From Sulfurimonas sp. (GTDB lineage: Bacteria; Campylobacterota; Campylobacteria; Campylobacterales; Sulfurimonadaceae), in assembly GCA_041595535.1 (NCBI GenBank), contig JBFHKA010000002.1, forward strand, positions 20,263 through 84,262: 64,000 nucleotides of DNA, in the 5' to 3' direction. Positions 31,551 through 35,212 of this stretch are shown here, in pieces. A model generated the notes under the pieces. The model was not told the origin of the DNA. It ran no database searches and was given only the letters and a program-made list of their open reading frames with translations. The translations under genes were made by a program, and so were the position numbers. The stretch's first letter is position 1; each line of letters opens with the position of its first letter.

Positions 31551-31715
31551 TCAATCAGTTTTTTTCTCTATATATGCTGCCCCGTCATTAACCTTGTCTT
31601 TGCTCCACTCTGCATTATCAGTTGTGTCTTTTTTTGCACCTTGCCATGTCTCACTACAACCACTAGCCATGAGTAGTACAAATAGAAGTAGTATAAATGT
31701 TAGACTCTTTTTCAT
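31551..31715 (-). CDS. Small lipoprotein, entericidin EcnA/B-like (54 aa; not in the ORF track)
   Basis: MKKSLTFILLLFVLLMASGCSETWQGAKKDTTDNAEWSKDKVNDGAAYIEKKTD; lipobox MASGC, the TWQGAKKD motif, AAGGAT RBS. Confidence 0.8.
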   Translation of the reverse strand: MKKSLTFILLLFVLLMASGCSETWQGAKKDTTDNAEWSKDKVNDGAAYIEKKTD

Positions 31716-31754
31716 TTTAAATCCTTTTATTTTGTGAAGAGTTTTCTACGACTC

Positions 31755-31901
31755 TTAGATCCGTCTGCCTTGTATAACACGAACCAGAATAGTTATAAGG
31801 GCGATAACTAAGAGAATATGAATTAATCCTCCCATCGTGTATGAACTGACAAGTCCTAGAAGCCAAAGGATGATTAGAATTATTGCAATAGTCTCAAGCA
31901 T
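31755..31901 (-). CDS. lmo0937/DUF5670-like small membrane protein (48 aa; not in the ORF track)
   Basis: MLETIAIILIILWLLGLVSSYTMGGLIHILLVIALITILVRVIQGRRI; LWLLG...GGLIHILLV signature, GGAGA RBS. Confidence 0.85.
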   Translation of the reverse strand: MLETIAIILIILWLLGLVSSYTMGGLIHILLVIALITILVRVIQGRRI

Positions 31902-32131: not shown

Positions 32132-35100
32132 CTACCAGTCATCTAGCACAAAAGGTTTCGGCTCTTTTTCGGTACTTTTCACCTCAACATTTTTATTAAT
32201 TTCAGGCTCTTTAACAACTTCTACTTTTTGTTTATTCATCTGTTCTTCAAACTGCAACTCTAAACCTTTGCTTGTCATAATAAAACCATTAACTTGTAGT
32301 TTTCCATCATGGATTTGATTATGATGTTCTTTACACAAAGGTACAAGATTATGCTTATTATCTTTATGAAAATGCCCTATAAAACCTGCTTTATCGGCTA
32401 AAGAGCGTTGTGATATATGATGCACGTCCTCGGCCACAGCTCCACAAATAATACACTTAGTTACATAGAGATCTTTGTTATACTTACTTGTTTTTTTCTT
32501 CACTAAGAGTTCAAGTTCATCAAAATCATTTGCCAATCTTTTACGAATCTTGTTGGCAACATCTAAAAACTCACTATCCATATGAAGAGACTTTGCGAAC
32601 TCCAAACCATAGATGCTACTTCCACTTCCTGCCTGTAAAATTCGGTTAAAAACTAAAGAGTCTTTCTCTTCGTCATACTCCACACTTAAATGTAAATCAA
32701 CCACATTTTTAAGCACTCGAATCTCTTGCATTGTAGAGAGTTGATGTAGGTGAGTTGCAAAGAGAAAAAGACAACGTACATCAGAGAGTTTTTTAATTGC
32801 ACTTGCGACTATAGCAACGCCAGAGAGTGTCTCAGTTCCATGACTTATCTCATCACCTAAAACAAGAGAACGTACACTACAACGGTTGAAAATGTTTTTT
32901 AGTTCAAGCATTTCAACCGCAAAAGTCGAAAGCCCTTTTGCTAAATTATCTTTAGAAACTATACGTGTAAAAAGAGAATCAAAAAGAGTAAACTTCATAA
33001 CGGCTGCACTTACAAAAAATCCAGATTGTGCCATCAACGTGGCAATTCCAATACTCTTCATTAGAGAAGATTTTCCACTCGAGTTTATACCGTAGAGTAA
33101 AACACCATTTATATCATGTCCATCATGTACACCTACTTCAAGCATAACACTTTCAGGGTGTGGCAAATCCATATAGTCCCGATTGCCCATAACTATATCA
33201 TTTGGAATATAAATTCCACCGCGTTCCTGTATCTCTATGAGTGGGTGACGCAGTTGCATTATTTGCATAAAATTCTCATCATTTTTTGCTTCAACTATCA
33301 TAGGACGAGAGTGTTTATAGAGTAGTGCAATTTTAGAAGAGCTTACGCCTACATCAAGATCTGAGACATACGCTATAACTCTATCAAAAAGTAGCGAGTA
33401 GCGTCTCTCAAAAACTCCCTGCAACTGCATATATCTCTCTTTTACAAGCGTTACTATTTTTCTGCGATTTTTCATGATTTTATCGGAGAGGTCATCTGTA
33501 AAAGTAGAAGTGATTTTGACATTGTTCGTCAATTTTTTTACACTGTACTTACTGAACTCTTCATCACTTTTAAAGAGTGTCTCTATAAGTGAAAAACGAT
33601 TTTTACTGAGTGATATATAATACCCCTCTTTCTCTAAAAGTCCTAATGTCACAAGTTTACTTGAGCTTCCTGCATTTACGCTCTCTAGTAGTACTTCTAT
33701 CTTTTTTGTAATATCTTCAAAAGCGATAAGCATAATGTCATTCTCTTTGACAAGTGTATCTATAGATTCATCAACACCACTCATCAAAAAGTTCTCATCT
33801 ACAGTTGCATTTGTAAAGCGACGTGAAACATCTAAATCTATGCTTTTATGAATGTCACGTAAGAACTCATCTAGTTCACTCTCATGAAAGGGAGTTTTTT
33901 GAATTTTATGTTTTTTTACATACAGCATCAACTCTTTGACACTTGTTATTGACTCGTAAACATGATTCATTTCAAATGGATGAAGCCTACCAAGACTTAA
34001 CCTACGTGAGAGTCTCTCTAAGTCATAAACACCACGCATCATCTCATCCAAATAGCGGACATGAGAAGAGACTCTCTCTATAAGATTGTATCTGCGTTCA
34101 AGTTCCTCTTTTTCCATTATTGGATTGAGAAGTCTCTCTTTTAGTAAGCGTCTTCCTATAGCTGTAGCACTTCTATCTAACATCTTTAGAAGTGTGAACT
34201 CTCTTTTATCTTTTGAGATAATTCCCATCTGCTCTAGGGCATTGTTTCCAAGGTACATAAAACGACGATTATCTATAAGGCGTGGCATTGCCATCTTTTG
34301 CACAATGTGATAATCATGCTCTATGACGAAATGAATTAAAATCGCTAAAGCTTCCGTAATCATAGGAGAGCGTTCTAAATCTAAATGTTCTATAGGAGAG
34401 AGAAGAGATTGTATCTGATAAACTTCGGCAAATAGTTTGTTTTGAAACTCTATCTTTGGTCTTTCATTGTTTACAGAGTAGTGATAGTGGTCTAGAATCT
34501 CAAGATAACTCATTACATGACGTTGATCACTGATGCCATCAAGAAAGGTTATCACTACCTCACTTGTTTTATGTACATTTAAAAGATTAAAGACTTCATC
34601 AAGTGCATATGCTGGGTCTTCACTAGTTCCATGTGTCTCATAGAGCCATGTTTTACCCGTTGTTACATCTATTGCAGAGTATCCAACTGTATAAATATCT
34701 CTATACTTATCTATTAAAAGAGAGACGATGTAATTATCATCGTTATCTACTATGTGGTCAAAATTTGTTCCTGGAGAGACAATTTGTGCTATATAACGGC
34801 TGATTTTTGGGGGATTGCCTTTTTGTTTTACAACAATCACTGTATACTTTTGCTCACTTATTAATCTGTTAAGATAACGTTCAAATGAAACAGCAGGAAC
34901 ACCCGCTAAAAGTGGATTTTTATCGGAGTTTTCTATGATATTTTTATTTTTTTTCGTCAGTTGGATATTTAGAAGTTCTGCTATCTCTTTAGCTTTTCCT
35001 ATCTGTTCTTCGTCATTATTGACCTCATAAACTTCAAAGAATGTTCCTATTTCCATAAAAACAACCGTATCGTTTCCATATTTTGCTTCAAAATGTCTTT

Positions 35101-35173
35101 GAAGGTCAAAATATGTCTGAGTCAACAGTTTATCTTTTTGATTTAAAATTTTATTGATATTAAATGAGAGCAT
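32132..35173 (-). CDS. mutS: MutS family protein with C-terminal HNH endonuclease (MutS7-like)
   Basis: Mismatch-binding [11 protein letters not shown]; Walker A GINSSGKS; STFAVEM; GDEISHGTE; FATHLH; C-terminal CIIC...EDVHHI...[16 protein letters not shown]. Confidence 0.92.
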
Positions 35174-35203: not shown

Positions 35204-35212
35204 ATTATAGCA
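35204..35212 (-). promoter_or_regulatory. Extended -10 for mutS
   Basis: TGCTATAAT 30 nt upstream of the ATG. Confidence 0.7.

Follow-up and report, generated by a model that had tools for sequence, protein, structure and literature searches.

The 64,000-nucleotide stretch of Sulfurimonas sp. DNA analysed here (hereafter the window) encodes, on its reverse strand at positions 32132-35173, a 1013-residue protein in which a MutS-type mismatch-recognition and ATPase core is followed by a putative HNH nuclease. Judged by its sequence, this protein is an ordinary member of the MutS7 family (HNH-MutS), which is known from the Epsilonproteobacteria/Campylobacterota, Mimiviridae-type giant viruses and octocoral mitochondria (Ogata et al. 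2011; Bilewitch & Degnan 2011, PMC3166940). Our preferred reading, to which we assign a probability of about 60%, is that the main role of MutS7 is mismatch-directed incision of DNA that does not depend on MutL. The family is among a small number of candidates for mismatch repair by a single protein.

Both the gene and the hypothesis of self-contained repair are already in the literature: the family was described in 2009-2011, and the idea is not new because it has been the published hypothesis for the family (Bilewitch & Degnan 2011, PMC3166940). Our additions are modest: the presence of MutS domains II and IV, a quantitative association between MutS7 and the scarcity of homopolymeric tracts, a C-terminal tail found in the Sulfurimonadaceae, a truncated MutS7 paralogue in one sister genus, and evidence for selection on all domains.

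Domain architecture of the MutS core

Pfam recognised MutS_I (residues 33-139, E 1.7e-12), MutS_III (residues 313-611, E 2.9e-22) and MutS_V (residues 692-880, E 2.2e-43) in the mutS7 product, together with a weak match to MutS_II (E 0.005), and a sequence search of the PDB returned the E. coli and Thermus MutS proteins at ~1e-44. When the profile of 12 Campylobacterales orthologues was compared with that of 8 MutS1 proteins drawn from six phyla (these references being plasmid- or chromid-borne mutS genes), hhalign gave a probability of 100 and an E value of 9e-73 over 762 columns at 24% identity. The alignment was unbroken, with residues 38-896 of the window protein corresponding to residues 25-805 of E. 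coli MutS. The AlphaFold2 model of the whole chain, with a predicted local distance difference test score (pLDDT) of 77, in turn matched the E. coli and Thermus aquaticus (Taq) MutS structures with an E value of 1e-41 over ~890 columns.

The mismatch-recognition domain I (residues 1-135, 34769-35173, on the reverse strand like all features of the gene) was assigned from Pfam MutS_I and from the hhalign alignment to MutS1. It contains the sequence GTFFEVY (residues 43-49, 35027-35047), which aligns with GDFYE of E. coli MutS such that Phe45 and Glu47 fall on F36 and E38; both residues are invariant in the 12 Campylobacterales and in 3 giant-virus homologues. The ABC ATPase domain V with its dimerising helix-turn-helix (residues 621-882, 32528-33313) was assigned from Pfam MutS_V and the PDB matches to MutS. 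Its Walker A sequence, GINSSGKSS (residues 695-703, 33065-33091), aligns with GPNMGGKST of MutS1 and is invariant, as are the Walker B residues Asp774-Glu775 (32849-32854), the STF sequence (residues 749-751) and T807-H808. These results agree with the preliminary description of this DNA, which had listed an intact mismatch-recognition motif and ATPase motifs. From Sulfurimonas to the giant viruses, at 30-35% identity, F45, E47, K701, D774, E775 and H808 are all kept, as are the HNH and zinc-binding residues described below (bar H950).

MutS7 has been described as lacking domains II and IV (PMC3166940), and a 2021 preprint found domain IV in 12 octocoral MutS7 proteins. By the profile alignment and the structural model, the window protein has both, and so differs from MutS7 as described. 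A connector (II-like) domain is predicted at residues 136-265 (34379-34768), where the weak Pfam MutS_II match, an alpha/beta fold in the AlphaFold2 model and the hhalign alignment to domain II of MutS1 coincide. The core/lever domain III (residues 266-620, 33314-34378), assigned from Pfam MutS_III and from long helices in the model, appears to have a clamp (IV-like) insert nested within it at residues 500-556 (33506-33676). There the model places beta-strands at residues 509-555, and the sequence EGYYISLSK aligns with HGYYIQISR of E. coli domain IV. Because the profile alignment is continuous and both domains are folded in the model, we would attribute their reported absence, at least for the window protein, to the sensitivity of Pfam. 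The lack of domains II and IV given for the family does not hold here, yet we do not regard this as disqualifying the protein from MutS7.

The C-terminal HNH module and tail

After the helix-turn-helix of domain V, the C-terminal tetramerisation and clamp-binding tail of MutS1 is replaced by a linker, an HNH module with a beta-hairpin, and a disordered tail. The linker (residues 883-903, 32465-32527) is predicted to be flexible, with pLDDT below 50 for residues 886-903. The putative zinc-finger HNH nuclease and its conserved beta-hairpin (residues 904-978, 32240-32464) carry the motif C907-x2-C910 ... D-V-H918-H919-I ... N942 ... C947-x2-H950-H951-x3-H955. It maps to 32309-32455, in accord with the C-terminal zinc-ribbon/HNH that the preliminary description had placed at about 32310-32455. 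All of the motif residues are invariant in the 12 Campylobacterales homologues, and all but H950 remain so when the 3 giant-virus homologues are added; in the latter H950 is replaced by Cys, which fits the expectation for a zinc ligand.

Library searches agreed on the class of fold at low scores. Pfam HNH, HNH_2, HNHc_6 and DUF968 all matched the module under their cut-offs (for HNH_2, E 9e-4 and 19.5 bits against a cut-off of 21). A model of the isolated module, which has a ββα fold (pLDDT 72), gave Foldseek E values of 0.08-0.2, and the six best matches were all HNH nucleases; they include EcoKMcrA, the HNH subunit of type I-E Cascade, TagI and Cap5.

Among 67 Sulfurimonas orthologues the ratio of nonsynonymous to synonymous substitution rates (dN/dS) is 0.05-0.08 in every domain, with 0.066 for the HNH module, and reaches 0.37 in the tail linker only, values that are rough since dS is near saturation. 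All MutS7 domains, the HNH module included, are under strong purifying selection.

The protein ends in a disordered, Lys/Glu-rich tail that closes with FVLDDW (residues 979-1013, 32135-32239; pLDDT below 50) and is specific to the Sulfurimonadaceae. A terminal [FIV][VIL]LDDW(D/E) or DDF motif is found in ~70 of 75 Sulfurimonadaceae orthologues, and these proteins thereby differ from other MutS7, to which they add ~35 residues: in the other Campylobacterales families and in the viruses the protein ends straight after the HNH hairpin. The LDDW end has the look of a short linear interaction motif. The stretch that precedes it evolves fast and frequently contains EPEIN. The single-stranded DNA binding protein (SSB) of the same genome ends in IDIDEDEIPF; its likeness to the LDDW tail extends to acidic and aromatic character only, and mimicry of the SSB tail is speculation.

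Family assignment and phylogeny

The window protein scored under the cut-offs of both NCBIfam MutS1 equivalogs (TIGR01070, 305 bits against 641.7; NF003810, 379 against 480) and of the MutS2 model TIGR01069 (119 bits against 400). It has no Smr domain and has domain I instead, and Pfam gave no match to a GIY-YIG domain. We built a tree of 54 rows (IQ-TREE quick search, LG+C20 with posterior mean site frequencies), with no octocoral sequence among them. The 8 MutS1 rows formed one clade (support 100), separate from a MutS-HNH clade of 45 rows (Shimodaira-Hasegawa-like approximate likelihood ratio test, 94) that comprised Campylobacterales sequences, four giant-virus contigs from IMG/VR and metagenome representatives. 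The window protein lies deep within the Campylobacterales clade (support 100), whose sub-clades track genome families, and the homologues on the four giant-virus contigs are 32-35% identical over their full length. The preliminary description had taken the protein to be MutS7-like rather than MutS1 and had proposed a phylogeny as a check; both the equivalog scores and the placement with the viral MutS-HNH proteins bear it out.

An exhaustive search of representative sequences returned 3524 proteins at E < 1e-30. Nearly all of the top 150 are 900-1100 residues long, and the pattern CxxC..HH..N..Cxx[CH]H..H is present in 129 of the 149 that remain when the nearest match, which is fragmentary, is set aside.

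Repair partners in the genome and across the order

The source assembly (2.62 Mb in 78 contigs, 99.99% complete) contains exactly two genes with a MutS_V domain: mutS7 and, as a separate gene on contig C6, a MutS2 with an Smr domain (TIGR01069, 563 bits against a cut-off of 400). Within this genome we found no MutS1 above cut-off, no match to the MutH model PF02976 and no NucS/EndoMS; for MutL there was no match to PF01119 and TIGR00585 gave just ~20-bit GHKL matches. RecJ and three UvrD-family helicases are encoded. The absence of MutS1, MutL, MutH and NucS supports the proposal in the preliminary description that recognition and cutting may be MutL-independent. A MutS1 in a genome with mutL, the finding that the preliminary description had named as counting against its proposal, is thus not what this genome presents.

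The same picture extends to the order, which we surveyed in 301 high-quality genomes from 57 genera and 14 families. MutS1 above cut-off was found in 0 of the 301 genomes and a MutL domain in 1. Full-length MutS7 is present in 72 of the genomes and in 29 of the genera, and in 27 genera most of the sampled genomes have it. Given its spread over 29 genera and a gene tree that follows family groups, mutS7 is vertically inherited and is not a mobile element; we regard it as a housekeeping gene of free-living Campylobacterales. The sole MutL-domain match (G230:C138:73939-74211) lies in a 365-residue open frame of a 170-contig assembly from a genus without MutS7. No MutS1 above cut-off accompanies it, and it may be a contamination or a rare acquisition.

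MutS7 and homopolymeric tracts

The presence of MutS7 coincides with a scarcity of long G/C runs. The median number of G9/C9 windows per genome is 1 (0.4 per Mb) in the 72 genomes with MutS7 and 40 (23 per Mb) in the 229 without it. Medians by genus are 0.5 for 27 genera with MutS7 and 54 for 30 genera without (Mann-Whitney p 2.5e-8), and within the three families that contain both states the means are 1.1 (29 genomes with MutS7) and 4.0 (9 without; stratified permutation p 0.001). In the source genome itself homopolymer lengths break off sharply: there is one G/C run of length at least 8, and the A/T runs number 664 of length 8 and 56 of length 9, with none of 10 or more. Over the order, the G9/C9 counts of genomes with and without MutS7 are ~40-fold apart.

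This near-absence of poly-G/C tracts is consistent with what a working correction of replication slippage would produce. The data suggest that, over the order, hypermutable G/C tracts tend to be missing where MutS7 is present and to occur where it is missing; if the link is causal, loss of MutS7 would be bound up with how phase variation evolved in Helicobacter and Campylobacter. Miller et al. (2007, PMC2147049) had already noted that Arcobacter butzleri, Sulfurimonas denitrificans and Wolinella lack G:C tracts, and guessed at a functional mismatch repair, which they attributed to MutS2 and DnaQ-like exonucleases.

Comparison with known systems

In domain order (I, III, V, C-terminal HNH) and in the shared F-x-E, Walker A/B and HH...N...H motifs the window protein resembles MutS7, and its host belongs to the classic bacterial group of that family; it differs from viral MutS7 in that its second zinc pair is C-x2-H where the viruses have C-x2-C. 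With MutS1 of E. coli and Thermus aquaticus (PDB 1e3m, 1ewq) it shares the five-domain fold, the F36/E38-type motif, the ABC ATPase and the helix-turn-helix dimer interface, whereas the ~24% identity, the scores under the equivalog cut-offs, the C-terminal linker and HNH, and the genome without MutL or MutH set it apart. MutS2, present in one copy in the same genome, likewise joins a MutS ATPase to a C-terminal nuclease; unlike the window protein it has neither domain I nor the F-x-E motif, its nuclease is Smr instead of HNH, and its substrates are recombination intermediates and stalled ribosomes. EndoMS/NucS, which is absent from this genome and unrelated in fold, works independently of MutS1 and MutL, and a single protein both recognises and cuts mismatched DNA, as is predicted for MutS7.

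A precedent is plant MSH1, a MutS protein with a GIY-YIG nuclease domain and a convergent solution that, like MutS7, places mismatch sensor and nuclease on a single chain. MSH1 cuts beside mismatches in vitro without partners, producing staggered double-strand breaks, and this cutting needs the F-x-E motif, the ATPase and the nuclease site (bioRxiv 10.64898/2026.06.11.731605). The two differ in nuclease type (HNH rather than GIY-YIG) and in MutS lineage, and the demonstrated activity is that of MSH1, not of MutS7.

Proposed mechanism

We envisage a homodimer that would scan duplex DNA and, like MutS1, use Phe45-x-Glu47 of domain I to bind mispairs or small loops; motif and fold are both present in the window protein, and binding is the activity that they predict. 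ATP binding to the ABC ATPase would then license the next step by converting the dimer to a clamp state, as the MutS1 structures and the ATPase requirement of plant MSH1 suggest. By analogy with MutS1, the DNA would in this state be shifted towards the ATPase end; the two HNH domains are expected to sit there on their ~20-residue linkers. In a genome without MutL and MutH, the HNH domains would presumably cut near the mismatch with the help of neither.

The cut could take two forms. A single-strand nick might be followed by the action of UvrD-type helicases and RecJ; alternatively, the two HNH domains might together make a staggered double-strand break, to be repaired by recombination with the sister chromosome, as has been proposed for plant MSH1. 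In the latter case strand discrimination would not be needed. We make no firm choice between nick and break: the nick is an assumption, and by analogy MSH1, which makes staggered breaks, offers a precedent for the other form. MutS1, MutL, MutH and NucS are all absent from culturable, non-pathogenic Campylobacterales hosts such as Sulfurimonas and Sulfurospirillum.

Several points weigh against mismatch-directed incision as the main role. In the literature searched we found no biochemical or genetic test of any MutS7, in keeping with the statement in the preliminary description that the function of bacterial MutS7 is undemonstrated, and a 2021 study of octocorals still calls the function of MutS7 unknown. 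No strand-discrimination device was identified: there is no MutH, a search by eye recognised no beta-clamp motif of the QL[SD]LF type, and in the linker the sequence DELELLV shows no conservation beyond the family. The HNH assignment relies on invariant motif residues and on the consistency of the top matches, with the library matches themselves below threshold. None of the genes neighbouring mutS7 is repair-related. As for the tracts, the same scarcity would be expected of free-living organisms that have no contingency loci, and the association is confounded by phylogeny and lifestyle, with no control for GC content; the genomes without MutS7 come mainly from three families, and one large genus without MutS7 has a median of only 6.

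Alternative explanations

The alternative that we take most seriously, while considering it rather unlikely, is that MutS7 serves in heteroduplex rejection, cutting mismatched intermediates of recombination or transformation and acting mainly to hold back homeologous recombination and the uptake of foreign DNA. A domain I with F-x-E would detect mismatches in heteroduplexes of every kind, a tethered nuclease could destroy displacement loops, plant MSH1 was long viewed as a recombination-surveillance factor, and the failure to find a strand-discrimination device would also be explained. However, the same genome already has a MutS2 with Smr, the usual anti-recombination MutS, and the scarcity of slippage-prone tracts in genomes with MutS7 fits control of replication errors better; nor does rejection exclude mismatch-directed incision, since MutS1 does both. 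We see less reason still to think of MutS7 as mainly a sensor of damaged or deaminated bases (e.g. U:G or oxidised bases) that starts their removal, and regard this as improbable. Its residues are those conserved in mismatch-binding MutS1, the sequence offers nothing that separates recognition of damage from that of mismatches, and there is no glycosylase or apurinic/apyrimidinic endonuclease among the neighbouring genes. What speaks for a damage sensor is that plant MSH1 cuts at U:G too, that a link between yeast MSH1 and base excision repair has been reported and that, as general background, the hosts are sulfur-oxidising or microaerophilic and exposed to reactive species.

HNH domains also characterise homing and restriction enzymes, McrA, TagI and Cap5 are the best structural matches of this one, and the family has a patchy spread over bacteria, viruses and one organelle (PMC3166940), so that the fusion could be read as a homing-endonuclease-like or anti-phage module, its MutS part being a DNA-sensing ATPase unrelated to repair. 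We consider this very improbable for a single-copy gene without mobile-element neighbours that is vertically inherited over 29 genera, with strong purifying selection in all domains. A search for defence systems with PADLOC gave just a 13.7-bit AbiLi match on the P-loop, which is noise, and a defence system was rejected. Finally, the full-length similarity over all five domains might be taken to mean that the protein is a canonical MutS1 that acts through MutL, with the HNH as an inert appendage. Against this stand the lack of MutL and MutH in a 99.99%-complete genome, the single MutL domain among the 301 genomes of the order, the scores under the MutS1 equivalog cut-offs, and HNH catalytic and zinc residues that are conserved and under selection. 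This explanation is refuted for practical purposes, and only a MutL analogue changed beyond recognition could rescue it.

Returning to mismatch-directed incision by MutS7, the observations can be joined into a broader reading that we offer tentatively and would not expect to hold in full. MutS7 would be the sole and fully self-contained mismatch correction of free-living Campylobacterales, working through an MSH1-like staggered break and recombination. It would explain the scarcity of poly-G/C tracts, and its loss in Helicobacter- and Campylobacter-type lineages would have allowed phase-variable contingency loci to arise. The LDDW tail would either recruit a partner, in the manner of an SSB tail, or auto-inhibit the nuclease.

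Variation within the family

One metagenome representative (P0122/P0271), at 47% identity, branches with the Campylobacterales MutS7 clade (support 97). One member of its cluster is named 'Candidatus Magasanikbacteria bacterium' by NCBI, and this is the sole named cluster among the representatives nearest the clade; the placement and the name together would imply that MutS7 also occurs in the Candidate Phyla Radiation (CPR)/Patescibacteria.

In one Campylobacterales family (f5: G005, G007, G043, G045, G106 and G296; loci L120 and L122) MutS7 is shorter, at 918-927 residues against ~985-1013. These proteins, with ~60 residues fewer, retain the HNH end and reach the top scores on the MutS1 model, of up to 341 bits.

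In a sister genus, from the same family as the window's host, three genomes carry beside the full-length gene a second MutS7 paralogue of 674 residues (L133:1737-3761 and L134:1770-3794, both on the forward strand, and G231:C9:102066-103040), which adjoins a DapE-like gene. The paralogue lacks domain I and keeps MutS_III and MutS_V, with Walker A and B intact; its HNH is degenerate, the His-His strand being gone and ~20 residues deleted. By analogy, the pairing of a truncated with a full-length MutS7 recalls the split between sensing and non-sensing subunits in MSH2-MSH6 heterodimers.

The gene and its surroundings

The mutS7 gene consists of 1013 codons and a stop, and its single intact open reading frame (ORF) fills 32132-35173, as the list of open reading frames and the translation agree. 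The ATG at 35173 is the earliest start codon of the open frame and the start is the same in the orthologues. The ORF of the preliminary description is real and intact. The nearest orthologues, all from Sulfurimonas, are 86-97% identical (S. aquatica, 88%), and NCBI names the orthologues variously 'DNA mismatch repair protein', 'MutS-related protein' or 'HNH endonuclease'.

The gene had also been credited with a promoter of its own. An extended -10-like site, TGCTATAAT, is indeed present at 35204-35212 on the reverse strand, 31 nt upstream of the ATG, as read from the sequence. The call as a promoter finds no statistical support: the window has 7 copies of the extended -10 pattern TGNTATAAT where shuffles lead one to expect 6.3, which is chance level, and a sigma-70 scan of the region did not include the TGCTATAAT site among its matches. 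Because TGNTATAAT is no commoner than chance, the promoter is plausible from its position alone.

Upstream of mutS7 lies an MscS-like gene, and downstream there are small membrane ORFs and a YqeY-like gene; FlgH, a methyltransferase and a TonB receptor are encoded nearby. The mutS7 gene is probably monocistronic. Directly downstream, on the same strand at 31551-31901, are two small ORFs, one of which encodes a 48-residue, very hydrophobic peptide with two helices, and the other a 54-residue lipoprotein-like peptide with an LMASGC lipobox.

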